Positions 3,138 through 53,220 are shown, counted from the stretch's first letter. The stretch is DNA of 64,000 nucleotides from an uncultured Candidatus Binatia bacterium (GCA_965261895.1 OZ253480.1:2727788-2791787); one strand, 5' to 3'. Translations and numbers: made by a program. The notes: a model not told the origin generated them from the sequence alone.

Positions 3138-3172
3138 GGTCGTCTTCTTGCCTTCTATATCAGACCGGGCCA

Positions 3173-3193
3173 GGGCGGGTTTGAAACCCGCCC
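3173..3193. repeat. Solo 21-bp core palindrome GGGCGGGTTTGAAACCCGCCC (same core as the MITE family)
   Basis: Perfect inverted repeat between the large-subunit start and the small-subunit stop. The adjacent CCTAC supplies the small-subunit TAG stop (3194-3196). Confidence 0.8.
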
Positions 3194-3670
3194 CTACGAG
3201 CGCATCCGCTCCGCCGCCTGCTTGACCGCCTTGATGATGTTCAGATAGCCGGTGCAACGGCACAGGTTGCCGGAGTAGGCCCGGCGGATCTCCTCGTCGG
3301 ATGGGTCAGGGTTCTCGTCGAGAAACGCCACCGTGGTCATCAGCATGCCGGGGGTGCAGAAGCCGCACTCCAGTGCGTCGCATTCCCAGAACGCTTCCTG
3401 GATCGGATGCAGCTCTCCGTTCGGGGCCAGGCCTTCCACCGTGCGGATCTCCGCCCCGTCGGCCCGGGGCGCCAGCACCTGGCACGATTTCACGGTGAGG
3501 CCGTTCATGATGACGGTGCAGGCGCCGCAGTTGCCGGTGTCGCAGCCCACGTGAGTGCCCTTGAGGCCGGCCTTGTCGCGGATGAGATCCACCAGCAGGA
3601 GGCGCGGCTCCACCTCGAACGAGTAAGCCGTTCCGTTGATGGTGGTGTGGACCGTGATCCGTTGCATCAA
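3194..3670 (-). CDS. [2Fe-2S]-binding small subunit of molybdenum hydroxylase (CoxS-like)
   Basis: 158 aa with a plant-type ferredoxin motif ([11 protein letters not shown]) and a second cluster motif (CGFCTPGM...CRCTGY). Confidence 0.9.
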
Positions 3671-5954: not shown

Positions 5955-5981
5955 TTGTAGGGGCGGGTTTCAAACCCGCCC
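5955..5981. repeat. Solo core palindrome (TTGTAGGGGCGGGTTTCAAACCCGCCC)
   Basis: Same 21-bp palindrome as 3173..3193, in reverse orientation. Confidence 0.8.
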
Positions 5982-6033
5982 GCGCCCGCATTGCGCCGTC
6001 GCCCGACACGGGCCGGCAGCGCGGAGTATCCGT

Positions 6034-8442: not shown

Positions 8443-8491
8443 GCTCGTTTCAATTCGGAGCCCGTACCGGCCGACAGCGCGATACGGGCGC

Positions 8492-8512
8492 GGGCGGGTT
8501 TGAAACCCGCCC
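8492..8512. repeat. Solo core palindrome GGGCGGGTTTGAAACCCGCCC
   Basis: Perfect 21-bp inverted repeat followed by CTACA. Confidence 0.8.
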
Positions 8513-8562
8513 CTACACTCTCGCCTTCCTGCGGCGTCGACACCTGGCGGGACGGGTTCGGG

Positions 8563-10020
8563 CTATTCGCCTCCCACCATCTCCGACCGTTGTTCCGTGG
8601 CCACGACCACGGACTTGACCTCGCTGTAGTGCTCCACCGCCTCGTTGCCGTGCTCCTTGCCGACGCCGCTCTGCTTGACGCCGCCGAAGGGCAGCTCGTC
8701 GTAGATGATCTGCGCCGAGTTGACCCAGGTGTAACCGGCATCGAGCTTCTCGGCGGCGTACAGGGCCTGGTCGATGTCCTGGGTCCAGATCGAGGAGCCC
8801 AGGCCGAAGATGGAATCGTTGGCTTGAGCCAAGCCCTCTTCGAGATTCTTGATCCGAACCACCGGCAGTGCGGGGCCGAACACCTCGTCTTTCAACAGCT
8901 TGGACTCGAGGTCGACATCCACCACGACGGACGGATTCAGAAAGTAGCCCTTGTCGTACTCGTCGCCGGTGGGGCGGTCGCCGCCCACCAGCACCTCGGC
9001 GCCGCGCTGCACCGCGTCCGCCACCTGCTCCTCCACCTCTTCGCGCTGCGCCTTGGTGTGCAGCGGACCGAGCATGGTGCCGCGCGTCAGGCCGTTGCCC
9101 ACCCGCAGCTTGCGGACCTTCTCCACCAGCTTCGCGATGAACTCGTCGGCGATCTTGTCCTGGAGGTAAAGCCGCTTCACCGCCAGGCACGCCTGGCCGC
9201 AGTTGAAAAAACGGCCCACGGAAGCCGCGCTCACCGCCCGATCGATGTTGGCGTCGTCGCACACGATCATGGGGTCGCTGCCGCCCAGCTCGAGGGTGAC
9301 CCGCTTGACCTCCTGGGCGGCCACCTCCATGATCCGTTTGCCGGTATCGGTCGCGCCGGTGAAACCGATCTTCCTGATGACGGGGTGCCGCAGAATCTCC
9401 TCGCCCACGGTCCCGCCCGGCCCGGTCACCATGTTGATGGTGCCCTTGGGAAGGCCCGCCTGCTGCACCAGCTCGACGCACCGGGTCGCGGTCAGCGGCG
9501 TGGTGCTGGCGGGTTTGATGACCATGGCGTTGCCGGCGAGCAGCGCCGGGCCCACCTTGTTGCCCATCAACGACACCGGGAAGTTCCACGGTATGATGGA
9601 GCCCACGACGCCCATGGGCTTGCTGATGATCAACCCGTAGCGCCCGTCATCCAGCTTCACGTAGCCGCCGCGCAAGGTCTTGGCCATGCCGGCGTAGTGC
9701 TCCAGGGTGTGGGCGAAGCGGCGGATTTCCAGCACCGACTCGCGCAATGCCTTGCCCTGCTCCTTGGTGAGTAGCTGGGTGAGCTCCTTCTCGTTCTCCA
9801 GCACCAGACGCGCGGCCTCGGACAGGCAGGCGCCGCGCTTGGCCGCAGAAAATTTACCCCACTCCACCGCCGCCTCTGCCGCGGCCGCCACCGCCCTCTT
9901 GACGTCTTCGGCCGTACCCTTGGGTACGGTATCCACCAACTCGCCGGTGGCGGGGTTGTGGATGGACGTGGTCTCGCCGCTTGCGGTATCCGTATACTCA
10001 CCTGCAATGAACATTTGCAT
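8563..10020 (-). CDS. NAD(P)-dependent aldehyde dehydrogenase
   Basis: ORF 8563..10194. Probable start is the ATG at 10020 (MQMFIAGEY). ALDH motifs are present (catalytic Cys in FFNCGQAC; ELGGS). Confidence 0.85.
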   Translation of the reverse strand: MQMFIAGEYTDTASGETTSIHNPATGELVDTVPKGTAEDVKRAVAAAAEAAVEWGKFSAAKRGACLSEAARLVLENEKELTQLLTKEQGKALRESVLEIRRFAHTLEHYAGMAKTLRGGYVKLDDGRYGLIISKPMGVVGSIIPWNFPVSLMGNKVGPALLAGNAMVIKPASTTPLTATRCVELVQQAGLPKGTINMVTGPGGTVGEEILRHPVIRKIGFTGATDTGKRIMEVAAQEVKRVTLELGGSDPMIVCDDANIDRAVSAASVGRFFNCGQACLAVKRLYLQDKIADEFIAKLVEKVRKLRVGNGLTRGTMLGPLHTKAQREEVEEQVADAVQRGAEVLVGGDRPTGDEYDKGYFLNPSVVVDVDLESKLLKDEVFGPALPVVRIKNLEEGLAQANDSIFGLGSSIWTQDIDQALYAAEKLDAGYTWVNSAQIIYDELPFGGVKQSGVGKEHGNEAVEHYSEVKSVVVATEQRSEMVGGE

Positions 10021-15100: not shown

Positions 15101-15289
15101 CTAGTGTGGTGTGTCACAAATACGGTTATGAAGATGCGAGGGCATTTTGGTTGTCGGCAAGGCGCGATGACTTGTAGGGGCGACCGGCGGTCGCCCCCCA
15201 GTGGCGTGCACCACGCGAGGAAGAGCAACGCAGCCGACGGCCAAAAGGACCCGCAGATTCATAACCTTATTTGTGAGACACCACACTAG
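15101..15289. mobile_element. MITE copy A (189 bp; TIR CTAGTGTGGTGTGTCACAAATAC; core variant GGGCGACCGGCGGTCGCCC)
   Basis: Terminal inverted repeats ctagtgtggtg...caccacactag. It sits between the TctA-family gene and the DUF1989 gene. ORF-track entry 15104..15289 is its translation. Confidence 0.8.
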
Positions 15290-24922: not shown

Positions 24923-25111
24923 CTAGTGTGGTGTCTCACAAATACGCTTATGAAGCTGCGAGGGCATTTTGGTTGTCGGCAAGGCGCGATGACTTGTAGG
25001 GGCGGGTTTCAAACCCGCCCGTGTGGCGGGCACCACGCGAGGAAGAGCAACGCAGCCGACGGCCAAAAGGACCCGCAGATTCGTAAGCGTATTTGTGAGA
25101 CACCACACTAG
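24923..25111. mobile_element. MITE copy B (189 bp; canonical TIR; core GGGCGGGTTTCAAACCCGCCC)
   Basis: ctagtgtggtgtctcacaaatacg ... cgtatttgtgagacaccacactag. Confidence 0.85.
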
Positions 25112-25293
25112 TGTCCTGTCCGGTTAATTCGCATGGTAAGATGCGCAGGATTTTTCGTCGTCGACAAGGCGCGATGACGTGTAGGGGCGACCGGCGGTCG
25201 CCCCCGTGGCGGGCACCACGCGAGGAAGAGCAACGCAGCCGACGAGAAAAAGACCAGCAGATTACCGTGCGAATTGACCGGACAGGACACTAG
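25108..25293. mobile_element. MITE copy C (186 bp; alternative TIR CTAGTGTCCTGTCCGGTTAATTCGCA; same core family), tandem to copy B and sharing one CTAG
   Basis: ctagtgtcctgtccggttaattcgca ... tgcgaattgaccggacaggacactag. The internal segment is near-identical to copy A. Confidence 0.8.
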
Positions 25294-33443: not shown

Positions 33444-33648
33444 AAGAACCTCCCTTTAAGAGTTTAGTGATAGGATTTAACCGAAATCTAAGCACGATTT
33501 GCCCGCAGTCAAGGGGGCGGCCGGGTGCAACCCGTTTGGAGAACGTTTTTGCGGGCCAAATCGTGGACCGAAATTGGCCAAGGCGGCAAAACCGCGTATA
33601 CTGTGTTCGATTTCATGATCGGTCTCATCACCTTGGTCTGGTGGCTAC

Positions 33649-33669
33649 GGGCGGGTTTGAAACCCGCCC
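33649..33669. repeat. Solo core palindrome GGGCGGGTTTGAAACCCGCCC
   Basis: Perfect 21-bp inverted repeat followed by CTACAC, 20 bp upstream of the GST start. Confidence 0.8.
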
Positions 33670-33689
33670 CTACACGGAGGTAACGCAAC

Positions 33690-35591: not shown

Positions 35592-35978
35592 ATGGCACGA
35601 TATCCCGCGCTGATCGACGGCAAGAAAGGCGCCTACGGCGTTGCGTTTCCCGACCTGCCCGGTATCGTCGCCATGGGGAAGACCATTGACGAGGCAATGG
35701 TCAACGCCGAGGAAGCGCTTCGCGACTACGCGACCGAGGCGCTCAAGGACGGTGAAAAGATTACCCCGCCGAGCGACCTGGAGCGAGTGGAAACGCGGGC
35801 GGGACAGGCTCTCGTATCCGTTCCGCTAATCCGTCTTTCGGGCCGGAGCGTCCGCACCCATATGACGCTGGACGAGGGGGTCGCTGCCTTCATCGATGGC
35901 GAGGCGCGAAGGCGCGGCATGACCCGCACCGCGTACGTCGAGTGGATGGCGCGCCGCGTTGCGGAAATGGGCGGCTGA
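35592..35978 (+). CDS. hicB: HicB-family antitoxin
   Basis: 128 aa with an N-terminal UPF0150/HicB block (YPALIDGKKGAYGVAFPDLPGIVAMGKTIDEAMVNAEEAL) and a C-terminal RHH-like DNA-binding tail. Confidence 0.75.
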   Translation: MARYPALIDGKKGAYGVAFPDLPGIVAMGKTIDEAMVNAEEALRDYATEALKDGEKITPPSDLERVETRAGQALVSVPLIRLSGRSVRTHMTLDEGVAAFIDGEARRRGMTRTAYVEWMARRVAEMGG

Positions 35979-36016
35979 ATTTTCCAGACTACGCACAATG
36001 ATGATAATATAGGGCC

Positions 36017-36298
36017 ATGGCAGGAAAGACGTCAGCGAAGGACAACCGTCAGGAGAACCTGTTCCGGGAGCTTCGGAGCTTTGCGGAACAGTGCGGCATC
36101 GAGGTCCGGTGCGAGAAGTTGCCGCGCGACTTAGGCTATCGCGTGCGTAGCGGCGGTTGCACGGTCAGAGGAAAGAAGTGGGTGATCGTGGACCGGACGC
36201 TCCCGGCCCGTGACCGGCTGGATCTGCTGGCCGACGAAATCAGGGAGTCGGTGAACGGGGAGTTGGAGATACCTGCCAGCCTTCGACCGTTCCTCTAG
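36017..36298 (+). CDS. Hypothetical protein (93 aa)
   Basis: ORF only; no recognisable motif. Confidence 0.35.
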   Translation: MAGKTSAKDNRQENLFRELRSFAEQCGIEVRCEKLPRDLGYRVRSGGCTVRGKKWVIVDRTLPARDRLDLLADEIRESVNGELEIPASLRPFL

Positions 36299-36328
36299 AG
36301 GTCATTCTCCCCTGCGGGTGCGGGCACG

Positions 36329-36437
36329 GGCGGGTTTGAAACCCGCCCCTACAACAGCCCGACCGAACGAATGCGAAGGGACCTTCGCCCGACGAGCCGT
36401 TGCCGTCGGTGACCCCCTACAACAGCCCGACCGAACA
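36329..36437. repeat. Solo core palindrome (36329-36349) plus direct repeat CCCCTACAACAGCCCGACCGAAC (36347-36369 and 36415-36437) downstream of nuoN
   Basis: Seen directly; it lies in the region between convergent genes. Confidence 0.7.
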
Positions 36438-36469: not shown

Positions 36470-37954
36470 CTATTTCATGAAGAATACCAGCGAGCCGCTG
36501 GTATAGTCGAGCAACGGCCCCCAATACACTCCCAGCACCACGGTCAGCACCATGAGGGCACCGAGCAGCGGCACCGCGCTCGCGGTCGCGGCCACTGGAC
36601 CGTCCTCGGGAGTGGGGGCGTCCAGGAACATGGTCCGGACGATCCGCACGTAATAGTACAGCGAGATGACCGTGTTGATGAGCGCCACCACCGCGAGGAC
36701 GTAGAACTCGGCATTGATGATGGCGGCGAAGAGCAGAAACTTGCCGATGAAACCCGCGAAGGGCGGCAGGCCAGTGAGGGAGAAGAGGAACGCCCCCATG
36801 CAGATGGCCGGGAACGCGGCGCCCCGCCAGGCCAGCCCGCGGTAGGCCTCCAAGTCCTCGCGGCCGGTGGCGTTGGCCACCACCATGACCACCAGGAAGG
36901 CGCCCAGGTTCATGATCAGGTAGACCACCACGTAGAAGAGCATGGCGGTCAGCCCGTCGTTGTTCAGCACCACCAGACCCATCATGATGTAGCCCGCGTG
37001 GGCGATGCCGGAATAGGCCAGCAGGCGCTTGACGTTGTTCTGGTTGAGGGCCGAGAGGTTGCCCCAGGTCATGGTGATGATGCTGAGGGCCACCAGCACA
37101 TCCGTCCACTGGAGCGCGGGAAACGCCTGGAACGTCCAGCTCCCATCCGGTCCGAGGGTGGACACCGCGGGGTAGAAGAAGCGGATCAGGATGGCGACGC
37201 CGGCAGCGTTGGAGGCCACCGAAAGAAATCCGGTGAAGGGCGTCGGCGCCCCCTGGTACACGTCCGGCGACCACATGTGGAACGGCGCGAAGGCCATCTT
37301 GTAGCCGAAGCCGGCCAGGATGAAAATGAAGGCGATGAACAACCCTGTCTGGTTGCCGCTCCCTTGAACCATGGCCGCGTTGATGGCCGCGTAGTCGAGG
37401 CTGCCGGCCATGCCGAACACCCAGCTCATGCCGTAGATCATGGTGCCGGACGCGACCCCGCCGTAGATGAGATACTTGAGCGCCGCCTCCGCCGAGCGCC
37501 GGTTGTGCGGCAGCATGCCGGTCAGGATGTAGGACGTCAGGCTCACCAGCTCCAGGCCCAGGTAGGCCATCAGCAGGTTGCTGGCCGAGGCCATGAAGAA
37601 CATCCCCAGTCCGCAGGTCAAGAGCACGATATAGTACTCGCCCAGGTGCACCTGCCGGACCTCGCCGGATCCGATGGACATCCAGATGGCCGCCAGCAAC
37701 GCTGCCAGCGTGATCACCTTGAAGAACAGGCTGAAGTTGTCCAACGCCACCATGCGGTGGAACAGCAACGCCGGAGGCGTCCCGTAGAGTTCCAGGGCAG
37801 CGATCAGGGCGACGGCGCATCCGGCCAGACCCACGTACGCCAGCAGCCGCTTGTTGGCCACCAACAGGTCCAGGATCGTCAGCAGGATGATTGTTCCCGC
37901 GAGGACGATTTCCGGATGGAACAGCTTGATGCTTGCGAGGTTACCGAGGTCCAT
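36470..37954 (-). CDS. nuoN: NADH-quinone oxidoreductase subunit N
   Basis: 494 aa polytopic protein with a NuoN/ND2 signature. Confidence 0.9.
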   Translation of the reverse strand: MDLGNLASIKLFHPEIVLAGTIILLTILDLLVANKRLLAYVGLAGCAVALIAALELYGTPPALLFHRMVALDNFSLFFKVITLAALLAAIWMSIGSGEVRQVHLGEYYIVLLTCGLGMFFMASASNLLMAYLGLELVSLTSYILTGMLPHNRRSAEAALKYLIYGGVASGTMIYGMSWVFGMAGSLDYAAINAAMVQGSGNQTGLFIAFIFILAGFGYKMAFAPFHMWSPDVYQGAPTPFTGFLSVASNAAGVAILIRFFYPAVSTLGPDGSWTFQAFPALQWTDVLVALSIITMTWGNLSALNQNNVKRLLAYSGIAHAGYIMMGLVVLNNDGLTAMLFYVVVYLIMNLGAFLVVMVVANATGREDLEAYRGLAWRGAAFPAICMGAFLFSLTGLPPFAGFIGKFLLFAAIINAEFYVLAVVALINTVISLYYYVRIVRTMFLDAPTPEDGPVAATASAVPLLGALMVLTVVLGVYWGPLLDYTSGSLVFFMK

Positions 37955-37960
37955 ATTGTG

Positions 37961-39481
37961 TTACGACAGGTGCGTGATGACCATCTGGTTGATGTTGTTG
38001 AGGGAGGCCTGGAGCAGGTCGAGCACCACCCGAGGATACACGCCGACGATCACCACGATCACTCCCAGCGGGAACAACGTAAAGATCTCGCGGCCGTTGA
38101 TCTCGGGCAACGACCGGTACTTCTCGTTGGGCGGGCCGAGATAGACCCGCTGCATCATCCACAGCATGTAGCCCGCGGTGATGACGATGCCCAGGGCCGC
38201 GATGACGGTCAGGGCATGGTACCTCGGCCAGGCGCCCAGCAGGACCAGCACCTCGGAGACGAAGCCCGACAGCCCCGGAAGTCCCATGGAGGCGAAAAAG
38301 GCCAGCGCCGTAAAGCCGGCGTACACCGGCATGATGCCGGCCAGGCCGCCGAAGCCGTTGATGTCACGATGATGGGCGCGGTCGTAGATCACCCCCACGA
38401 GCAGGAAGAGCATGGCGGTGATGCAGCCGTGATTGAACATCTGGAGCACCGCGCCGTTGATGCCCTGGGTGTTGAAGGCCGCCATCCCCAGCATGACGTA
38501 GCCCATGTGGCTCACGCTGGAGTAGGCCACCAGCTTCTTCATATCCGTCTGCGCCATGGCGCAAAGGCCGCCATAGACGATGTTCCACGTTCCCAGGGCC
38601 GCGAGGAAGTAGAAGGCCAGGTCTGCCGTGGCCACCGGCAGCATGGGATAGTTGATCCGCAGGATGCCGTAGGTGCCCATCTTCAGGAGGATGCCCGCCA
38701 GGATCACGGAGATGGCGGTAGGCGCCTCCACGTGGGCGTCGGGCAGCCAGGTGTGGAACGGAAAGGCCGGAATCTTGATGGCGAAGCCGATGAACAGCGC
38801 CATCCACACCACGTGCTGGAAGCCCCATCCCCACACGTTGAACGGCCACATGGCCAGCGGCGTGGTGCTGTAGAGGCTGCTCCGGTCCATCAGCTTGGTC
38901 ATGTCGAAGGTGTTGGGCTCGGAGTAGAAATGCAGCGCCAGGATGGCGACCAGCATCAGCACGCTCCCGAGCAGCGTGTAGAGGAAGAACTTGATGGCGG
39001 CGTATTCCTTGCGCGGGCCGCCCCAGATGCCGATGAGGAAATACATGGGAAGCAGCATGACTTCCCAGAACACGTAGAAGAGCACGAAATCCAGCGCCAC
39101 GAACACCCCGGTCATGCCGGTGTCCAGGAGCAGGAACAGCGCGAAATAACCCTTGACCCCCTTGTCGATACCCCAGGAAGCGAAGATACAGATAAACGAC
39201 AGCAGCGCCGTCAGCAGCAGCATGGAGACGCTGAGGCCGTCGACGCCGATGAAGTACTCGATGTTGAACGCGGGGATCCACTCTGCCCGCTCGACGAACT
39301 GCATGGAGGTGGTGGCGGTGTCGAAGTTGGCGTACAGCCAGACGCCCAGAATCAGCGGCGGCACCGTGGCTGCGGCTGACACCCAGCGAATGAGATCATG
39401 GCGTCCGCTGGGCAGGATCAACACGACCAGCATCCCGGCCAAGGGGAAGAAGACCATGTAGCTCAGCACATGTTCGGTCAT
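37961..39481 (-). CDS. nuoM: NADH-quinone oxidoreductase subunit M
   Basis: 506 aa with a NuoM/ND4 signature. Confidence 0.9.
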   Translation of the reverse strand: MTEHVLSYMVFFPLAGMLVVLILPSGRHDLIRWVSAAATVPPLILGVWLYANFDTATTSMQFVERAEWIPAFNIEYFIGVDGLSVSMLLLTALLSFICIFASWGIDKGVKGYFALFLLLDTGMTGVFVALDFVLFYVFWEVMLLPMYFLIGIWGGPRKEYAAIKFFLYTLLGSVLMLVAILALHFYSEPNTFDMTKLMDRSSLYSTTPLAMWPFNVWGWGFQHVVWMALFIGFAIKIPAFPFHTWLPDAHVEAPTAISVILAGILLKMGTYGILRINYPMLPVATADLAFYFLAALGTWNIVYGGLCAMAQTDMKKLVAYSSVSHMGYVMLGMAAFNTQGINGAVLQMFNHGCITAMLFLLVGVIYDRAHHRDINGFGGLAGIMPVYAGFTALAFFASMGLPGLSGFVSEVLVLLGAWPRYHALTVIAALGIVITAGYMLWMMQRVYLGPPNEKYRSLPEINGREIFTLFPLGVIVVIVGVYPRVVLDLLQASLNNINQMVITHLS

Positions 39482-39503
39482 TTTCGCATCTCTCCTCTTC
39501 GAC

Positions 39504-41537
39504 TCAGCTCCAGTAGCGCAGCTTGATGATCAGGACGGCGACCACGGCTCCCACCACCACGTAGAGGTAGCTGTTGATGTTCCCGGTCTGGACCCTTCGG
39601 AAGTTGTTGCCTACCGCGAAGGTCACGTTGGCAACGGCGTTGACCAGCATGTCGACGACGTACTGGTCGAACAGGCCGTTGAACCAGGAGACGACGATAG
39701 TGAGCTTGGCCGTTCCGTCCACGATGGTGTCGATGATGTAGCGATCGAACGCCGCTCCGATCCGCGCCAGCAACAGGGTGCCGCCGACGAAAACGAACTG
39801 GTAGACCTCGTCCACGTAGTACTTGTTGTAGAGCAGGCGGTATGCGAACCCACGGGCCTCCGGCGACTCGTCCCGGGATGGGGTCCGGACGTAGTACAGG
39901 AACCACGCCAGCGCGACGCCCGCGACGCCGGCGACGATGGCCACGCTCATGACCCCGACCTCTTCCATCATCGCGTGGTGCTCGACGTGGGGGACGTGGA
40001 TCACCGGATCGAGCCAGTGGTCGAGCATGCTGCCGCCCATGAACGCCGGCAGCCCGATATAACCCACGACCACGGAGCCGGCCGCGAGAATCCACAGCGG
40101 ATAGGTCATGATCTTCGGAGACTCGTGCAGGTGCTCCTGCACGTGGTGGTCGGCGCGGCATTCGCCGAAGAACACCATGAAGAACTGGCGGAACATGTAG
40201 AAGGCCGTGAGCCCCGCCACGAACACGGCTACCCCCCACAGCGCTACGTTGTGAGTGGCCCAGGCCTGCCACAGGATCGCATCCTTGGAGAAGAAGCCCG
40301 CCAGGAAAGGCGCTCCGGCGATGGCCAGGACGGCGATGGTGAAGGTCCAGAAGGTCGCCGGCATCACCTTCCTCAAGCCGCCCATCTGCCGCATGTCCTG
40401 CTCCCCCTGCATGGCGTGGATGATGCTTCCGGAGCCCAGGAAGAGGCAGGCCTTGAAAAACGCGTGGGTCAGCAGGTGGAAGACTCCGGCGGAGTAGGCG
40501 GCCACGCCCATGGCCAGGAACATGTAGCCGAGCTGGCTGATGGTGGAGTAGGCCAGGACGCGCTTGATGTCGGTCTGGGTCACCGCGACGGTGGCGGCGA
40601 AGAACGCAGTGGCGGCGCCGACCACGGCGATGATCCCCAGGGTCACGGGAGCCGCGGAGAAGAGCGGGTTCAGCCGCGCGATCATGTAGACCCCGGCCGT
40701 CACCATGGTGGCGGCGTGGATCAGCGCACTCACGGGGGTCGGGCCCTGCATGGCGTCCGGCAGCCAGACGTAGAGCGGGATCTGCGCCGACTTGCCGGCG
40801 GCCCCGATGAACATCAGGATCGTCACCAGCGTGACCACGCCGATGCCCCAAAGCTCCATGTTGGCCAACAGCCCCACGTGCTCCTGGATCTCACGGAACG
40901 CCAGCGTTCCCTGGCCGTGCTCCGTCAGGCTCCAGAAAAGCAGGAAGATGCCCAGGACGAAGCCGAAGTCGCCGACGCGGTTGACGATGAAGGCCTTGTT
41001 GCCGGCGCGGGTGTTGGTGTGGTCCGTGTACCAGAACCCGATGAGCGCCCAAGAGCAGAGCCCCACGCCCTCCCAGCCCACGAACATCAGCAGCAGGTTG
41101 TCGCCGGTCACCAGCAGCAGCATGGAGAAGGTGAACAGGTTCAGGTAGGCGAAGTAGCGCCACAAGGACCGGTCCTCGTGCATGTAACCGATGGAGTAGA
41201 AGTGGATCAGTCCGCCGATGCCGCTCACCACCAGGATCATGATGGCCGACAGCGGATCCACCCAGAAGGCCACGTCCACGTTGAAGGAGCCCATGGGGAT
41301 CCAACTGTAGAAGTGGTCGATGAGAAACCGATCCTTGGCCGGCAGGGACAGCAACCGGCCAAAGGCCCACAGCGAGAACAGAAACGACAGGGTCACCGGG
41401 GCGCAGGCGATAACGGCCACCATCCGCTTGCCCGCGCGCTCCTGTATGCGGGCCCCCAGCAGACCGTTCACCGCGGCGCCCAGCAGCGGGAACAACACGA
41501 TCCAACGCAGAAAATCGGTTTGAACGGGGTGATCCAT
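39504..41537 (-). CDS. nuoL: NADH-quinone oxidoreductase subunit L
   Basis: 677 aa with a NuoL/ND5 signature including the C-terminal long helix. Confidence 0.9.
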   Translation of the reverse strand: MDHPVQTDFLRWIVLFPLLGAAVNGLLGARIQERAGKRMVAVIACAPVTLSFLFSLWAFGRLLSLPAKDRFLIDHFYSWIPMGSFNVDVAFWVDPLSAIMILVVSGIGGLIHFYSIGYMHEDRSLWRYFAYLNLFTFSMLLLVTGDNLLLMFVGWEGVGLCSWALIGFWYTDHTNTRAGNKAFIVNRVGDFGFVLGIFLLFWSLTEHGQGTLAFREIQEHVGLLANMELWGIGVVTLVTILMFIGAAGKSAQIPLYVWLPDAMQGPTPVSALIHAATMVTAGVYMIARLNPLFSAAPVTLGIIAVVGAATAFFAATVAVTQTDIKRVLAYSTISQLGYMFLAMGVAAYSAGVFHLLTHAFFKACLFLGSGSIIHAMQGEQDMRQMGGLRKVMPATFWTFTIAVLAIAGAPFLAGFFSKDAILWQAWATHNVALWGVAVFVAGLTAFYMFRQFFMVFFGECRADHHVQEHLHESPKIMTYPLWILAAGSVVVGYIGLPAFMGGSMLDHWLDPVIHVPHVEHHAMMEEVGVMSVAIVAGVAGVALAWFLYYVRTPSRDESPEARGFAYRLLYNKYYVDEVYQFVFVGGTLLLARIGAAFDRYIIDTIVDGTAKLTIVVSWFNGLFDQYVVDMLVNAVANVTFAVGNNFRRVQTGNINSYLYVVVGAVVAVLIIKLRYWS

Positions 41538-41558
41538 GGCGAGGCAGTTCGTGAAAGG

Positions 41559-41891
41559 CTAGTCCCTGAGCGTCTCGGTGGCCTCGACGTCGATGGTGGC
41601 GAAGAGCTGGTAGATGGAGAGCACGATGGCCAGGCCGATGGCGGCTTCGGAGGCCGCCAGCATGATGATGAAGACCGTGTAGATCTGCCCATCCACGTTC
41701 CCGGTGCTGAAGTGCGAGAACGCGACGTAGTTCAGTCCCGCCGAATTGAGGATGAGCTCGACACCCAGAAGAATGCTGATGGCATTGCGCCGGGTAAGAA
41801 CGATGTAGATGCCCAGCGCGAACAGGATGCCCGCGACCACCAGGTAGTGCCTCAGTCCGACGTCCGTCAACAGTGCAACGTATTCAGCCAT
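41559..41891 (-). CDS. nuoK: NADH-quinone oxidoreductase subunit K
   Basis: 110 aa with a NuoK/ND4L signature. Confidence 0.85.
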   Translation of the reverse strand: MAEYVALLTDVGLRHYLVVAGILFALGIYIVLTRRNAISILLGVELILNSAGLNYVAFSHFSTGNVDGQIYTVFIIMLAASEAAIGLAIVLSIYQLFATIDVEATETLRD

Positions 41892-41906
41892 CTCGCGAAA
41901 CTCTCG

Positions 41907-42425
41907 CTATTCCTTGATTTCCTTGCGCGACAGCGTGATGGCGCCGATGAGCGCCACCAACAGCACCACCGCGGCGATCTGGAACGGCAGCAGGTAGTCG
42001 CCGAGGAAGAGGTTGCCGATGGCCGCCGTGGTGGGCGCGAACGCCACTTCCTTGACCTGCACCCAGCCGGTCTCGCCGATGGCGTAGACCAGGATGCCAA
42101 GGAAGACCGCCACTGCCGCAAGCGCGGGAATGCGGCCCACCGTGCGGTTGGTGATCTCGATTTCGCTGATCCGATGGGTCAACATGACCGCGAACAGGAT
42201 CAGTACGAGAATGCCGCCGACGTAGATCAATACCTGCACCGCCGCCACGAAGTCCGCGCCGAGAAACACGTAGAGGCCGGCCACCCCGCCGAACGTACCC
42301 AGCAGCGAGAAGGCCGAATGCACGATGTTCCGGGAGAACGCGACGATGCAAGCGGACCCTATCACGACGAGGGAAACCAGATAGAAGATCAGGACGCCTA
42401 TGGAAATCTCCATGATCAAAACCAC
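41907..42425 (-). CDS. nuoJ: NADH-quinone oxidoreductase subunit J
   Basis: 172 aa with a NuoJ/ND6 signature. Confidence 0.85.
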   Translation of the reverse strand: MVLIMEISIGVLIFYLVSLVVIGSACIVAFSRNIVHSAFSLLGTFGGVAGLYVFLGADFVAAVQVLIYVGGILVLILFAVMLTHRISEIEITNRTVGRIPALAAVAVFLGILVYAIGETGWVQVKEVAFAPTTAAIGNLFLGDYLLPFQIAAVVLLVALIGAITLSRKEIKE

Positions 42426-42531
42426 CCTTTTACTTAGAAACCGGGAGGGTTGCGCCGTTTACGGTCGGCGGTGGGGCCAGGAGCGTGTCCGACGAAAAAG
42501 TCTCGTGAATCCTGCCATGGCCGGCGGGCCG

Positions 42532-43071
42532 TCATTTCTCCGGTTCGGCCACCTCGTCCAGGTACCTCAGTCCGATATCCACCTTCTGAACCATTCGGGG
42601 TTCCGTTTCCCCACCCTTCTTCGGCTTGTAGAGAGGCACTGTCTCGGTAACGAAATGCCGCACCAGACCGGCGGGATTGTTGCAGGCGCCCTCGAACTCC
42701 TGAGTGTGACGAATGGAGCCCGTGGGGCAGGCCTCCATGCACAGCCCACAATACATGCACTTGCAAATGTCGATGTCAAATTGGGTGAAGTCGCGCTGGT
42801 TCGTCTCCGCGTTCTTCTCGATGCCGATGGCGATGCAGTTGATCGGGCAGACCCTCTCGCACGCCAGGCAGCCCGTGCAGATGTCCATGTCGACCTCGAG
42901 GATGCCGCGGTAACGCAAGGGCAGGGTCGCCTGCACCTGTTGCGCGATGCGGTCGGGATACTGGATCGTCGACGGCTTGCGGACGAAGTGCGAGAAGGTG
43001 ATGGACATGCCTTCGAAGATGCTCGTCACCGTGTCTCGCACGTTCTGAAAGTATTCGATGACTCCATTCAT
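42532..43071 (-). CDS. nuoI: NADH-quinone oxidoreductase subunit I (2x[4Fe-4S])
   Basis: ORF 42532..43206. Probable start at 43071 (MNGVIEYFQ). Two CxxCxxCxxxCP motifs. Confidence 0.88.
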   Translation of the reverse strand: MNGVIEYFQNVRDTVTSIFEGMSITFSHFVRKPSTIQYPDRIAQQVQATLPLRYRGILEVDMDICTGCLACERVCPINCIAIGIEKNAETNQRDFTQFDIDICKCMYCGLCMEACPTGSIRHTQEFEGACNNPAGLVRHFVTETVPLYKPKKGGETEPRMVQKVDIGLRYLDEVAEPEK

Positions 43072-43099
43072 GGACGTTTCCCCGGACGATCGTTGGACC

Positions 43100-44311
43100 C
43101 TACACGTAGGGCTTGAGATACAGGGTCGGACGCGAGTGAATGATCTGAAAGACCACCCGCCAAAAAAAATAAAGGACCACGAGACCCGAAAACGCCAACG
43201 TGGCAACGGTCAGCGCGGTATTCCCTTCGGGCCAGAGCACCAACAGCGAAATCGTTCCGAACATGCAGACGAACGCGATGGGGACCATGTATTTCCAGCA
43301 CATGGCCATGAGCTGGTCCACCCGCACCCGCGGCAGGGTGCCCCGTACCCACATGGCGACGAAGGCCCACATGTACGCCTTGATGAAGAAGACCGTGAAC
43401 TCCAGCACACCCTTGAGCAGCGGGTGGTCCGCCATGACCACGCCGAAGATCGCCGCCGGTATCTGCCAGCCGCCGAGAAACAGGGTGGCCGCGATGGCGC
43501 CGATGACGTACAGATTGCCCCACTCCGCAAAGAAGAAGAATAGGAAGCGCATGCCGCTGTACTCGGTCACGTAGCCGGCTACCAACTCCGATTCGGCTTC
43601 GGGAATGTCGAACGGCGTCCGGTTACCCTCGGCCAGAGCCGCGGTGAAGAAGAGGAAGAAGGCCACCAGGGTGAAGGGGTTGTAGAAGATGAACCAGTTC
43701 CAGGGGGCCCATCCCTGGGCCTCGATGATCCCCTGCATGCTGAGGGTGCCCGACAGGAAGATCACCGTCAGCACCGCGAGCCCCGCGGGGATCTCGTAAC
43801 TGACGATCTGCGCAGCCGAGCGCATCCCCCCCAACAGCGACCATTTGTTGTTGGACGACCAGCCCGCCATCAGGATACCCACCACCGGCAGAGAGGTAAT
43901 GGCCAGGAGGTAAAGGATGCCGATGTTGAGGTCCGCGGCGATCAGCCAACTGCCGAACGGTATCACGACGAAGGCGCCGAGAAACCCCGAGAAGACGATA
44001 TAAGGGGCCAGCAGGAAGAGTTTCCGGTCGGCCGCAGTCGGGATGATGTCCTCTTTCTGGATGTTCTTGACCCCGTCGGCGAGCCACTGAAGCACTCCCT
44101 GCGGGCCGACCCGGTTGGGACCGACCCGGGACTGCATGCGCGCCCACACGCGCCGCTCCAGCCAGCTCGTCACGCCGGCGAGCGGCGCCACGAAGGCCGA
44201 CAGCACGACGACGGCCACCAGCACCACCGCAAGGGCATAGCCCAGGGCCGCCGGAACGGCCCCCGGCAGCAACCCCTGAATCAAGTCTTGAACGGTGAAT
44301 TCCATCGGCAC
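43100..44311 (-). CDS. nuoH: NADH-quinone oxidoreductase subunit H
   Basis: 403 aa with a NuoH/ND1 signature. GTG at 44311 or ATG at 44305. Confidence 0.9.
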   Translation of the reverse strand: MPMEFTVQDLIQGLLPGAVPAALGYALAVVLVAVVVLSAFVAPLAGVTSWLERRVWARMQSRVGPNRVGPQGVLQWLADGVKNIQKEDIIPTAADRKLFLLAPYIVFSGFLGAFVVIPFGSWLIAADLNIGILYLLAITSLPVVGILMAGWSSNNKWSLLGGMRSAAQIVSYEIPAGLAVLTVIFLSGTLSMQGIIEAQGWAPWNWFIFYNPFTLVAFFLFFTAALAEGNRTPFDIPEAESELVAGYVTEYSGMRFLFFFFAEWGNLYVIGAIAATLFLGGWQIPAAIFGVVMADHPLLKGVLEFTVFFIKAYMWAFVAMWVRGTLPRVRVDQLMAMCWKYMVPIAFVCMFGTISLLVLWPEGNTALTVATLAFSGLVVLYFFWRVVFQIIHSRPTLYLKPYV

Positions 44312-44314
44312 AGC

Positions 44315-44504
44315 CTCAGTGTCGTGTCCCGGAAATTGGCATGATCATTTGCTTGTCCTTTTTACCGTCGGCTACGTTGCTCTTCCTCACGTGGTGGCCG
44401 CCACACGGGCGGGTTTGAAACCCGCCCCTACAAGTCATCGCGCCTTGCCGACGACAAAAATTCCTGCGCAACTAATCATGCCAATTTCCGGGACACGACA
44501 CTAG
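44315..44504. mobile_element. MITE copy D (third TIR variant CAGTGTCGTGTCCCGGAAATTGGCATGAT; core GGGCGGGTTTGAAACCCGCCC) between nuoH and nuoD
   Basis: cagtgtcgtgtcccggaaattggcatgat ... atcatgccaatttccgggacacgacactag. The terminal CTAG (44501-44504) provides the nuoD TAG stop. Confidence 0.8.
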
Positions 44505-45637
44505 CGATCGATCTCGGGAGCGTCCACATCGAGGCTCGCGATCAAGGCGATCAGATCGGCGACCATGATTCCCGGGCTGATCTTGTCGATGATGCTCATG
44601 GCGGTGAAGGAACCGGTGCGGATCCTCACCCGGTAAGGATACTCGCTGCCGTCGCTGACCACGTAATAGCCCATGTCTCCGCGCGGCGCTTCGACGCGCA
44701 CGTAGGTTTCGCCTGCCGGCGGCTTGAACTTGCGCGCGACCTTGGCGACGGCCGGCCCGTCGGGTATCTTGTCGAGGCACTGGCGGAGAATCTTGCAACT
44801 CTCCATCAATTCCTCGATCCGGACCTGGTAGCGGTCGTAGGAGTCGCCCACGGTCCCCCGCACGCCCCGGCCCACCGGCACCTCGAAGTCGAGCTCGGGA
44901 TAGACCGAATAGGGAATGTCCCGGCGGATGTCCCACTGGATGCCGCACGCACGCAGGTTCGGACCCACCAGGTTGTACTGGAGAGCATCCTCCTTCGAGA
45001 TCACCGCGACGTTGGCCAGCCGCTCGATGAAGATCTTGTTGTACGACAAGAGCCGGTTGTATTCGTCGACGATGAGCTCGAAGTGGTCCAGGAACGCCGT
45101 AATCCGGCCGCACGTCTCCGGCTTGATGTCGTAGCCGACGCCGCCGATCCGGAGGTAGTTGTAGGTGAGGCGGGCGCCGCAGATCTCCTCCATGAGATCG
45201 TTGATGCTTTCCCGCTCCCGGAGCGCGTGCAGAAAAGGAGTGATGGCGCCGATATCCTGCCCGAAGGTGCCCACGGCGATGAGGTGGCTGGCGACGCGGT
45301 TGAGCTCGCAGGCGATCACGCGGCAGTACTCGGCGCGGGGCGGCACCTCGATGTTGCCCAGCCGCTCCGCCGCCATGCAGAAGCCCTGATTGGCGAACAT
45401 GGCGGCGAGATAGTCGGCCCGGTCGGTGTACGGGACGTAACCGTGCCACGTGCACTTCTCGCCGATCTTCTCGATGGAGCGGTGCAGGTAGCCGACGTCC
45501 GGGATGGCTTCGTTGATGACCTCGCCGTCCGTCTTGACCACGAACCGCAGCACGCCGTGGGTGCTCGGATGCTGCGGCCCCACGTTCAGCGTCATGTCTT
45601 CCGTGTGCAAGCCGGTCCTGGCGGTAGCCTCGCTCAT
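44501..45637 (-). CDS. nuoD: NADH-quinone oxidoreductase subunit D
   Basis: 378 aa with a NuoD/49-kDa signature. Confidence 0.9.
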
Positions 45638-45681
45638 GATATCATTCCTTCGTCAACCGACCCGATTGCGATGGTGGACGC

Positions 45682-45702
45682 GGGCGGATTTGAAATCCGC
45701 CC
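45682..45702. repeat. Degenerate solo core palindrome GGGCGGATTTGAAATCCGCCC
   Basis: A variant of the core with MITE-like flanks, next to MITE copy E. Confidence 0.6.
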
Positions 45703-45739
45703 CGACAAATCCATCGCGGCACACTGCCGACAAAAGGGT

Positions 45740-45928
45740 CTAGTGTGGTGTCTCACAAATACGCTTACGAATCTGCGGGTCCTTTTGGCCGTCGGCTGCG
45801 TTGCTCTTCCTCGCGTGGTGCACGCCACTGAGGGGCGACCGCAGGTCGCCCCTACAAGTCATCGCGCCTTGCCGACGACCAAAATGCCCTCGCATCTTCA
45901 TAACCGTATTTGTGAGACACCACACTAG
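45740..45928. mobile_element. MITE copy E (189 bp; canonical TIR; core variant GGGCGACCGCAGGTCGCCC) between nuoD and nuoC
   Basis: ctagtgtggtgtctcacaaatacgc ... gtatttgtgagacaccacactag. The terminal CTAG provides the nuoC TAG stop (45925-45927). Confidence 0.85.
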
Positions 45929-46431
45929 CGCATGTTCTCCGGGACCAACGGCTCGCGCTCGGTGCTGATGCCGTCGTACTCTTCCTGCTCCACGAAGTCC
46001 TTGCGCAGCGGATAACCCACCCAGTCCTCGGGCAACAGTATCCGCCGGAGGTCCGAATGCCCTTCGAAGATGACCCCGAAGAGATCGAACACTTCCCGCT
46101 CGAACCAGTTGGCGACCTTCCAGATGTCTTCCACCGTCGCGATCCGCGGCGCTTCCCGGTCCAAGTCGACCTTGATCACGGTCTGTTGCCGGGACTCGTA
46201 CGAGTACAGATGGTAGACGACCTGTATGATCTCCTCCTTCGGAAAATCCACGGCCGTCAGATCGGAGAGCACGTCAAATTTCAGCACGTCGTCGTCGCGC
46301 AGCGCCAGGAGCAACTCCTTGAGGCTGGCCGCCTTGACCTTGAAGAAAGGGTCCAGAACCTGCTCGTCAAGGTCGTCCACGCCCCCGGGACAAAGCTCCC
46401 TGGCGCGCTCGTATATCTCTTTTGCGGTCAT
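45925..46431 (-). CDS. nuoC: NADH-quinone oxidoreductase subunit C
   Basis: ORF 45925..46569. Probable ATG at 46431 (MTAKEIYERAREL); the upstream part of the ORF translates the MITE. NuoC/30-kDa signature. Confidence 0.85.
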   Translation of the reverse strand: MTAKEIYERARELCPGGVDDLDEQVLDPFFKVKAASLKELLLALRDDDVLKFDVLSDLTAVDFPKEEIIQVVYHLYSYESRQQTVIKVDLDREAPRIATVEDIWKVANWFEREVFDLFGVIFEGHSDLRRILLPEDWVGYPLRKDFVEQEEYDGISTEREPLVPENMR

Positions 46432-46480
46432 GTCGTCGCTATCTGCCCGGAAATCCTGCCCGTCCGAGCCGGCTGATGTC

Positions 46481-46669
46481 CTAGTGTGGTGTCTCACAAA
46501 TACGCTTACGAATCTGCGGGTCCTTTTGGCCGTCGGCTGCGTTGCTCTTCCTCGCGTGGTAACCGCCACACGGGCGGGTTTGAAACCCGCCCCTACTCGT
46601 CATCGCGCCTTGCCGACAACCAAAATGCCCTCGCATCTTCATAACCGTATTTGTGAGACACCACACTAG
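46481..46669. mobile_element. MITE copy F (189 bp; canonical TIR; core GGGCGGGTTTGAAACCCGCCC) between nuoC and nuoA
   Basis: ctagtgtggtgtctcacaaatacgc ... gtatttgtgagacaccacactag. The terminal CTAG provides the nuoA TAG stop (46666-46668). Confidence 0.85.
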
Positions 46670-47043
46670 TTCTTCACCCACTCCAGATCGCCCTTGCACC
46701 AGTCGTAGATGAGACCCAGAAACACGATCATGGTGAAGATGGAGATGGCCCCGAACGCAAAAAGTCCCGCGTCGTTCTGAAGCCAGTTGCGGAAGACCAC
46801 GGCCACCGGGAAAATGAAGGCGATCTCCACCTCGAAGATGATGAAGATGAGGGCGATGAAGTAGAACCGGACGTTGAAGTTGACCCAGGCACTCCCGGTC
46901 GCGGGCTCGCCGCACTCGTAGGTCGAGAGCTTTCTGAGCTGGGGATTGTTGGGCCGCAGCAAGCGGCCGATCAACAGGTTCACCCAGACGAAGGCCGCCC
47001 CCAACAACGTGAAAACCAGTACACTGGCGAAGTCGAAAAGCAT
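46666..47043 (-). CDS. nuoA: NADH-quinone oxidoreductase subunit A
   Basis: 125 aa with a NuoA/ND3 signature (STYECGEP). Confidence 0.88.
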   Translation of the reverse strand: MLFDFASVLVFTLLGAAFVWVNLLIGRLLRPNNPQLRKLSTYECGEPATGSAWVNFNVRFYFIALIFIIFEVEIAFIFPVAVVFRNWLQNDAGLFAFGAISIFTMIVFLGLIYDWCKGDLEWVKN

Positions 47044-48257: not shown

Positions 48258-48334
48258 CGTCTCTTACAGGAGGCTTGCCGACGAAGAGGCACGGAATGAC
48301 TTGTCACCGGCAGGGCCCGGCCAAGGGTTTGTAG

Positions 48335-48355
48335 GGGCGGGTTTCAAACCCGCCC
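48335..48355. repeat. Solo core palindrome GGGCGGGTTTCAAACCCGCCC
   Basis: Perfect 21-bp inverted repeat preceded by TTGTAG. Confidence 0.8.
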
Positions 48356-48409
48356 GTGCCCAACGACGCGGGTCCGTGCGGCCAGACGAGAACCTTCCAC
48401 GAGAACGCC

Positions 48410-52376: not shown

Positions 52377-52467
52377 GGGTTCCTAACCTAACATTTCGCT
52401 TGCCAAGGTCAAAGATGGCGACGGAATCCCCCGGGGCAACTCCGAATCTTCCGCGCGACCGCCACAC

Positions 52468-52488
52468 GGGCGGGTTTGAAACCCGCCC
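52468..52488. repeat. Solo core palindrome GGGCGGGTTTGAAACCCGCCC
   Basis: Perfect 21-bp inverted repeat. The adjacent CCTAC supplies the pyrF TAG stop (52489-52491). Confidence 0.8.
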
Positions 52489-53220
52489 CTACAACAGCGT
52501 ACCAGCCATCTCGGCGACCACCGACCGAGCCGCGGCGACCGGGTCGTCCGCGGCGGTGATGGGCCTGCCCACGACGATGAAGTCGATGCCCGCGCGAACC
52601 GCGTCTCCCGGGGTCATGACCCGCTTCTGGTCGCCTGCCTGCTGACCCGCGGGCCGGATGCCCGGCGTGACCAGCATGAAGGAATCGCCGCAGGCGCGCC
52701 GGATCTCCGGGACCTCCTGGGCGGAGCAGACGACGCCCGCCAGACCCGCCTCCTGCGCCATGCCGGCCAGCCGTACGACCTGGGCGGGCACGCCGTTCCG
52801 GATCCCCAGCGCATCGAGGTCCGACCCGTCGAGGCTGGTGAGGACGGTCACGCCCAGCACCGACGGCCGCCGCAGTCCTTCCTTCCCGCACACTTCCTCG
52901 ACCGCCGCCGCGGTCTGCCGCATCATCTCCCGGCCGCCGGAGATGTGCAGGTTGAACAGCCGGACCCCGAGCCGGGCGGCTTCCACGGCCGCCGCCGCCA
53001 CGGTGTTGGGAATGTCGTGGAACTTGAGGTCGAGGAAGACCTCGCCGCCGAGATCGTGGATCATGCGGACGACGTTCGGCCCGGCGTTCACGAAGAGCTG
53101 CTTGCCGACCTTGAACATCCCCACTTCCGGGGCGAGGAGGGTGGCGAGGGTTCTCGCTTTCGCCGGATCGGCCAGGTCCAGGGCCACGATCAGGCGCTGC
53201 TTGATATCCGTGGCCGTCAT
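52489..53220 (-). CDS. pyrF: Orotidine-5'-phosphate decarboxylase
   Basis: Probable ATG at 53220 (MTATDIKQRLIVALD). DLKFHDIPNT and catalytic Lys context. The longer ORF 52489..54267 is an out-of-frame artefact overlapping proS. Confidence 0.85.
   Translation of the reverse strand: MTATDIKQRLIVALDLADPAKARTLATLLAPEVGMFKVGKQLFVNAGPNVVRMIHDLGGEVFLDLKFHDIPNTVAAAAVEAARLGVRLFNLHISGGREMMRQTAAAVEEVCGKEGLRRPSVLGVTVLTSLDGSDLDALGIRNGVPAQVVRLAGMAQEAGLAGVVCSAQEVPEIRRACGDSFMLVTPGIRPAGQQAGDQKRVMTPGDAVRAGIDFIVVGRPITAADDPVAAARSVVAEMAGTLL

Follow-up and report, generated by a model that had tools for sequence, protein, structure and literature searches.

A nuo operon for respiratory complex I in a soil-dwelling member of Binatia (Candidatus Binatia), an uncultured bacterial class, raises the question of whether mobile elements have removed genes from it or have settled in an operon that already lacked them. 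The operon lies on the minus strand, at 36470-47043, of the 64,000-nucleotide stretch of DNA that was analyzed (GCA_965261895.1 OZ253480.1:2727788-2791787, ‘the window’ in short), and its order is nuoA-[MITE]-nuoC-[MITE]-nuoD-[MITE]-nuoH-I-J-K-L-M-N, where MITE denotes a miniature inverted-repeat transposable element. Neither nuoB nor nuoEFG is present. A preliminary description of the locus had noted that MITEs sit exactly where these genes would be expected, and had concluded that nuoB is either encoded elsewhere or was lost by a MITE-associated deletion. We find that the variant lacking nuoB (‘B-less’) is an ordinary nuoEFG-less operon in a gene order conserved across its clade, recently colonized by a MITE that targets CTAG.

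All ten genes were recognized with Pfam (best E-value 1e-112). They encode NuoA (46666-47043, 125 amino acids (aa); PF00507, E 5e-31), NuoC (45925-46431, 168 aa; PF00329, E 3e-43; ATG at 46431), NuoD (44501-45637, 378 aa; PF00346, E 3e-90), NuoH (43100-44305, 401 aa; PF00146, E 1e-112), NuoI (42532-43071, 179 aa; Fer4 families), NuoJ (41907-42413, 168 aa; PF00499), NuoK (41559-41891, 110 aa; PF00420), NuoL (39504-41537, 677 aa; PF00361 and PF00662), NuoM (37961-39481, 506 aa; PF00361), and NuoN (36470-37954, 494 aa; PF00361), all on the minus strand; gene calls also support nuoH, nuoI, and nuoJ. The spacers are filled by three elements of 189 bp each: MITE F (46481-46669) between nuoA and nuoC, MITE E (45740-45928) between nuoC and nuoD, and MITE D (44316-44504) between nuoD and nuoH. 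They take up 189 of the 237 bp between nuoA and nuoC and 189 of the 198 bp between nuoD and nuoH. From the end of MITE F to the nuoC start codon we measured 49 bp, in agreement with the roughly 50 bp given earlier. Each adjoining MITE terminates in CTAG, and the final TAG of this sequence serves as the stop codon of nuoA (46668-46666), nuoC, or nuoD; nuoK also ends in C-TAG, here without a MITE.

The sequence read comprised 64 kb of the window genome and 21 kb of each relative. A tblastn search with Escherichia coli NuoB as the query (E < 1e-5) found no NuoB-like sequence in any frame of the 64 kb, including the frames in which the preliminary description had allowed for an overlooked nuoB. 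A motif scan of the window for nuoB gave no match either; it carries less weight, since one of its three patterns (CC..EM) would overlook the Binatia form CCAIEL. Genes for nuoEFG were found neither between nuoD and nuoH nor anywhere else in the window. The gene order and the lack of nuoB and nuoEFG reported earlier were thus borne out. An independent contig (L001) has an arrangement identical to that of the window, and two short-read contigs from other samples (L003, L004) end within the same flanking MITEs. The gene call for nuoC is 168 aa in both L001 and L002, the latter being a 1.89-Mb contig from another sample that represents a near-identical strain, with a NuoD identical to that of the window. 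Literature searches returned no account of a nuoB-less nuo operon or of the complex I gene order in Binatia.

Relatives were collected by a protein scan with NuoD, taking one genome per species, which yielded 63 loci onto which all Nuo proteins and NuoB were mapped. Nearly all of these loci are from metagenome-assembled genomes that carry the label Candidatus Binatia or one of the older names Deltaproteobacteria and Syntrophobacterales, and many are from chromosome-scale assemblies. The ten-gene order on one strand is common to at least 60 relatives. Every relative, with or without nuoB, lacks nuoEFG, and nuoD and nuoH are separated by 5-25 bp in those free of MITEs; the lack of nuoEFG is ancestral to the whole operon family. 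Relatives at 82-86% NuoD identity carry nuoB in the order nuoA-B-C-D-H...N (‘B+’). In the 26 closest species-level relatives (L007-L030, L061; NuoD 92-97% identical), nuoA and nuoC lie 25-70 bp apart with neither nuoB nor a MITE between them. The comparison of synteny with MITE-free relatives, proposed in the preliminary description, hence provided 26 species that are B-less without the element. A second B-less group (L031, L032, L057, plus L046 and L069, both of them short contigs) likewise has nuoA 25-70 bp from nuoC, with no nuoB and no MITE in between. The guanine plus cytosine (GC) content is mostly 0.62-0.67 in the clade of the window and 0.51-0.55 in this second group. Public chromosomes of the B-less clade include OZ244869.1, OZ220710.1, OZ244617.1, OX638375.1, OY761465.1, and OY729432.1, and the second group is represented by OZ244621.1 and CAXXLF010000002.1; the 1.89-Mb contig ERZ26694339:contig_38 belongs to the species of the window.

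A neighbor-joining tree of the ten concatenated Nuo proteins, with B+ outgroups and 100 bootstraps, gave a support of 100 to three groups: the B+ clade, the main B-less clade, and, separately, the second B-less group. The B+ clade grouped with the second B-less group at 98, and all B-less lineages were united at only 2. The separation of the two B-less lineages in a tree that includes B+ outgroups indicates that nuoB left the operon at least twice within Binatia.

The near-identical strain L002 shows what the nuoA-nuoC junction looks like without the element. Its nuoA stop is a single CTAG with no element (GTGAAGAACTAGGACATC; empty site AACTAGGAC, reading AAC-TAG-GAC), and its nuoA-nuoC gap is 52 bp, where the window has CTAG-element-CTAG. 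MITE F is accordingly absent from L002 and is flanked in the window by a duplicated CTAG, so that the target-site duplication is seen as an empty and a filled site. As the empty site already contains TAG, the nuoA stop codon is older than the insertion. Copy content differs between the two strains at all three junctions: in L002, the nuoC/D spacer holds only half an element, and the nuoD stop carries two tandem elements, the extra one inserted into the CTAG of the stop. These differences imply that the elements have moved since the two strains diverged. MITE D is common to both and is therefore older than MITEs E and F; its right-hand target copy has degraded to CTGAG. Stops of the form C-TAG are also found in MITE-free species, at nuoA (in most of them), nuoC, and nuoD. 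It had been proposed that the MITEs donate the stop codons. The TAGs of nuoA, nuoC, and nuoD do lie within MITE-terminal CTAGs, but they were not donated, as L002 and the MITE-free species end in C-TAG already; the stop codons are the insertion target and its duplication, be it of CTAG or of the central TA. Because CTAG is palindromic, the two kinds of duplication, pointing to an IS630/Tc1-mariner or an IS5 origin, look the same at empty and filled sites. At the nuoA stop of another species (L026, about 9300-9340) we observed CTAG-ACACGACA-CTAG, in which ACACGACA matches the outermost bases of a D-type MITE. It looks like the footprint of an excision or deletion at the same target site.

The position of the elements can be understood from the distribution of CTAG. 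Base composition predicts 217 CTAG sites for the window, which contains only 19, and MITE ends account for 10 of these. The operon contains four such sites only, namely the stops of nuoA, nuoC, nuoD, and nuoK. MITEs occupy five of 14 CTAG sites in the window, three of these five being among the four of the operon (hypergeometric p = 0.095). With target sites taken into account, their co-location with the missing-gene junctions falls short of significance and is as expected from the availability of targets. A special link between the MITEs and these junctions is therefore not supported, the more so as the family is found in other nuo spacers elsewhere (nuoI/J in L013, nuoC/D in L020). Since CTAG is rare and within the operon is found only at C+TAG stops, insertions land exactly on stop codons. 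The locus is a clear example of a rare target steering a MITE onto stop codons: CTAG is depleted about tenfold and survives largely as C+TAG stops, and an element can therefore sit in a tightly packed essential operon with no reading frame damaged.

Six full copies of the MITE were counted in the 64 kb, four of the E/F subfamily and two of the D type. The E/F subfamily, to which MITEs E and F and a full-length copy outside the operon (15101-15289) belong, has perfect 24-nt terminal inverted repeats (CTAGTGTGGTGTCTCACAAATACG), and the end of the MITE reads TGTGGTGTCTCACAAATACG. MITE D represents the other subfamily and is 73% identical to MITE E. The elements are short and non-coding, bear terminal inverted repeats, and are self-complementary over almost their whole length. 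As RNA, one E/F copy folds into a near-perfect hairpin of 189 nt (-116 kcal/mol, z = -14.8). Rfam contained no known RNA family matching the MITE region, and there was no terminator-like site on the sense strand within the MITEs; the elements probably do not terminate transcription, and read-through is plausible. Neither the window nor about 170 other loci searched contained a cognate autonomous element or a transposase with matching ends. Outside the operon, MITEs of different subfamilies stand head to tail (24923-25111, E/F type, and 25108-25291, D type) with one CTAG in common, and the same layout is seen at the nuoD stop of L002. A new insertion creates a CTAG end, which makes that end itself a target for the next insertion.

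Two other differences between the window and L002 were observed. Just upstream of nuoA, L002 carries a gene of 421 aa with a faint match to the integrase core (rve) (7491-8756 of L002), which is absent from the window; together with the MITE differences, it points to a rapid turnover of mobile DNA around the operon. Furthermore, NuoD and NuoC are 100% identical between the two strains, and NuoN and NuoK only 92% and 96%, respectively. This uneven identity suggests recombination within the operon between strains.

The B-less operon is maintained by strong purifying selection. Within the B-less clade, the median pairwise ratio of non-synonymous to synonymous substitution rates (dN/dS) was 0.06-0.17 across all ten genes. 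NuoD retains the HPSTHG loop and the PYTDR tyrosine motif of the quinone site, and both CxxCxxCxxxCP (4Fe-4S) motifs of NuoI are intact. An operon that is kept by selection with its motifs intact implies a NuoB partner.

A metagenome scan with the NuoB of a Binatia operon as the query returned many A-B-C-D operons, together with 14 contigs in which nuoB has neither nuoA nor nuoC alongside and encodes a protein 89-94% identical to the query. Further stand-alone nuoB genes were found on contigs of up to 2.86 Mb, and overall the stand-alone copies, which lie on Binatia-type contigs, are 87-97% identical to operon copies. Their N2 cysteine motifs are intact, and they adjoin the operon NuoBs in a NuoB tree. 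Most of these loci represent one homologous neighborhood, with a glycosyltransferase, GH130, CarD, and a desaturase or CBS gene on one side of nuoB, and a PF01521 (iscA/erpA-like) gene, a zinc-ribbon gene, and sufB or a phosphoglucomutase gene on the other; in one variant, rubrerythrin and Rrf2 genes are located upstream. Another set has a second context, between genes for a hibernation factor (HPF) and an FKBP. Proteins from the stand-alone nuoB neighborhoods had no counterparts in the window.

Several candidates from these scans were rejected. P0005, P0041, and P0106 proved to be ordinary operon copies. P0095 and P0111, on contigs of chromosome size, come from other organisms, whose operon is of a different type (GC 0.52-0.55, NuoD 69% identical, no MITE). 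A high-GC stand-alone pair in L125 (1922-2991), nuoB followed by an iscA/erpA-like gene, is from Myxococcota/Polyangia and not from Binatia; it shows that the pairing of nuoB with iscA outside the nuo operon is not confined to Binatia. Two NuoB-family genes at one nuo locus were seen in a lineage some members of which are labelled Binatia (GC 0.52-0.55, NuoD 69% identical), where a complete nuoABCDHIJKLMN operon is accompanied by an extra NuoB paralogue of 176 aa that shares only 42% identity with the operon NuoB and has an Rrf2 regulator after it (L070 8364-8894, L071 8363-8893, L157 8410-8940). In this lineage, genes for Fe-S assembly precede the operon; they encode NifU, two ATPases of the Mrp/ApbC-like kind, a 2Fe-2S ferredoxin, and an FNR-like reductase.

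We consider it likely, on the whole, that the window holds a ten-gene nuoEFG-less operon with an old loss of nuoB and later insertions of CTAG-targeting MITEs. The nuoACDHIJKLMN operon would descend from complex I genes of the 11-subunit, NuoEFG-less type (nuoABCDHIJKLMN). A clean loss of nuoB from its place between nuoA and nuoC would have preceded the arrival of the MITEs by a long time and would go back to the common ancestor of a clade of 26 or more species; a second, independent loss would have taken place in another Binatia lineage. Non-autonomous palindromic elements would then have inserted at CTAG, duplicating it or its central TA, with the left copy of the duplicated CTAG continuing to serve as the stop codon. 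These insertions would be recent, differing as they do between near-identical strains. We infer that the operon is functional and that NuoB, the carrier of cluster N2, is supplied in trans by a stand-alone gene located elsewhere on the chromosome. It is possible, if somewhat doubtful, that nuoB repeatedly became stand-alone beside the gene for an A-type Fe-S carrier, sufB, and sometimes Rrf2, and that the supply of the N2 subunit, and with it the assembly of the quinone-reducing module, is co-regulated with Fe-S cluster biogenesis instead of with the other complex I genes. In a more radical version, the high-GC clade of the window may do without any canonical NuoB.

Of the two alternatives left by the preliminary description, a nuoB encoded elsewhere is thus favored, if indirectly, by the stand-alone genes in related contigs and by purifying selection, with the nuoB of the clade itself not located. 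Several observations weigh against this account. All recovered stand-alone nuoB loci have a GC content of 0.50-0.56, like the second B-less group and unlike the clade of the window, and the MITE and the hairpin, used as lineage markers, had no matches in them. Among the matches listed, there was neither a nuoB of the organism of the window or its high-GC clade nor a stand-alone nuoB on a contig tied to any genome in which the operon is B-less. Although the protein database contains chromosomes of the B-less clade, none of them was among the best 120 NuoB representatives or the cluster members listed; the NuoB and NuoC listings comprised the best 120 matches, with 15 of up to 2187 cluster members. 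This absence is weak evidence and leaves room for a divergent NuoB or for none. Alternatively, genomes that retain nuoB in the operon could carry the stand-alone gene as an additional copy. Finally, transcription would have to read through three hairpins of -116 kcal/mol.

Other explanations were weighed against this history. An assembly artefact, in which the collapse of repeats at the MITEs dropped nuoB and nuoEFG, might be suspected from the three near-identical 189-bp repeats within 2.4 kb and from the short-read contigs L003 and L004 that break at them. We give it practically no credence, as the same gene order is found in the independent assemblies L001 and L002 and in about 17 chromosome-scale assemblies of related species, where the junctions are free of repeats; this also disposes of the repeat collapse against which the preliminary description had cautioned. 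Deletion by the MITEs themselves, with recombination or imprecise excision removing nuoB and perhaps nuoEFG from a fuller operon, would account for the elements lying exactly at the A/C and D/H junctions of the window, and the half copy in the nuoC/D spacer of L002 demonstrates that copies do recombine. It is nonetheless refuted, and in our view extremely improbable, because the 26 B-less relatives have no MITE at the junction, nuoD and nuoH are already adjacent in all B+ relatives and throughout the family, and L002, despite its identical NuoD, has a clean, empty A/C site. The timing also disagrees: MITE F was inserted after two near-identical strains had separated, but nuoB was lost before the diversification of a clade whose synonymous divergence (dS) is about 0.3-0.5.

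With an old loss of nuoB followed by MITE insertion as the preferred history, the source of NuoB is a separate matter. The subunit might be borrowed from another, complete nuo operon that the genome also contains. The related operons with nuoB and a 176-aa paralogue beside NifU and Rrf2 (L070, L071, L157), some of them labelled Binatia, lend this some appeal, as does the lack of a stand-alone nuoB for the high-GC clade among the matches listed. Those operons, however, belong to different organisms, as judged by their GC content, NuoD identity, and lack of the MITE, and were matched to no B-less chromosome; moreover, NuoB proteins cannot usually be exchanged between paralogous complexes. We regard borrowing as rather unlikely. 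It is very unlikely that the complex dispenses with a canonical NuoB or relies instead on a partner that is non-homologous or highly divergent, or that the operon is an inactive relic. The chromosomes of the clade are indeed missing from the best NuoB matches listed, but this is a weak point set against strong purifying selection on all ten genes and intact quinone-site and cluster motifs in NuoD and NuoI. To our knowledge, every complex I studied so far passes electrons to quinone from cluster N2 on NuoB.

Among known systems, the closest is the 11-subunit complex I-like enzyme encoded by nuoABCDHIJKLMN without nuoEFG in Desulfitobacterium hafniense and many other bacteria (PMC11238625), the type to which the preliminary description had alluded when stating that such complexes are known in some lineages. 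The window resembles it in its ten genes in order on one strand, with nuoD followed directly by nuoH, no nuoE, nuoF, or nuoG between them, no NADH-oxidizing module, and intact NuoD, NuoI, and antiporter-like subunits. It differs in that nuoB (PF01058, the N2 cluster subunit), which stands between nuoA and nuoC in that operon, is lacking in the clade of the window, so that ten genes remain; the B+ relatives in Binatia are typical representatives of this type. Split sets of complex I genes are known from cyanobacteria and chloroplasts, where ndh genes are spread over several loci, and from the partial second nuo clusters of actinomycetes. ‘Nuo-Partial’ clusters have been counted (bioRxiv 10.1101/2025.03.13.643058). 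The likeness lies in subunits of one complex being encoded at more than one locus, as we propose for Binatia; here, in contrast, it is the N2 subunit alone that has left, on repeated occasions in a single class, and the Binatia-type stand-alone copy is usually located beside a gene for an A-type Fe-S carrier and often sufB.

Bacterial MITEs with long inverted repeats between co-transcribed genes include the Correia elements of Neisseria (TA target) and ERIC/IRU. The element described here is similarly small and non-coding, with terminal inverted repeats, target duplication, many copies, intergenic positions in operons, differences between strains, and a strong RNA hairpin. It differs in being unrelated in sequence, in its CTAG target, and in a central hairpin like those of repetitive extragenic palindromic (REP) elements that is also found free-standing. 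Insertion sequences that target CTAG are known from the IS630/Tc1-mariner group, which insert at CTAG and duplicate TA, and from IS5, with a 4-bp duplication (CTAG/YTAR). The filled site with CTAG at both ends and the empty site with one CTAG fit both, the difference being that no transposase with matching ends accompanies the elements in the window or the searched loci.

For the locus itself, these results are mainly a correction: mobile elements located where genes seem to be missing look causal, and the relatives show otherwise. Beyond this, the gene for the N2 Fe-S subunit has been removed at least twice within one class from an otherwise conserved complex I operon, and the solitary nuoB beside Fe-S assembly genes in related contigs hints at a separate control of that subunit.

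The center of the MITEs is a hairpin formed by the 22-nt GC-rich palindrome GGGGCGGGTTTCAAACCCGCCC, of which the window contains 11 sites where none are expected. Those inside MITEs are at 24999, 44406, and 46571, and seven or eight sites stand alone in intergenic DNA (3172-3194, 5960-5982, 8491-8513, 33648-33670, 36327-36349, 48334-48356, and 52467-52489). The nuoC/D spacer contains, at 45650-45739, what is either the remnant of an older element or another REP-like hairpin, with GGGGCGGATTTCAAATCCGCCC at 45682-45703; this hairpin is also present in several MITE-free relatives. The palindrome looks like a REP-like element that is carried by the MITE or around which the MITE was built. The stand-alone copy at 36327-36349 lies just downstream of nuoN, a place that is kept in L009 and L061. 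Directly downstream of nuoN there is also a pair of small genes (35600-36300 in the window, 19340-20046 in L001), encoding a HicB-like antitoxin (PF15919) and a partner of 93 aa, and this pair is kept in both L001 and L002.

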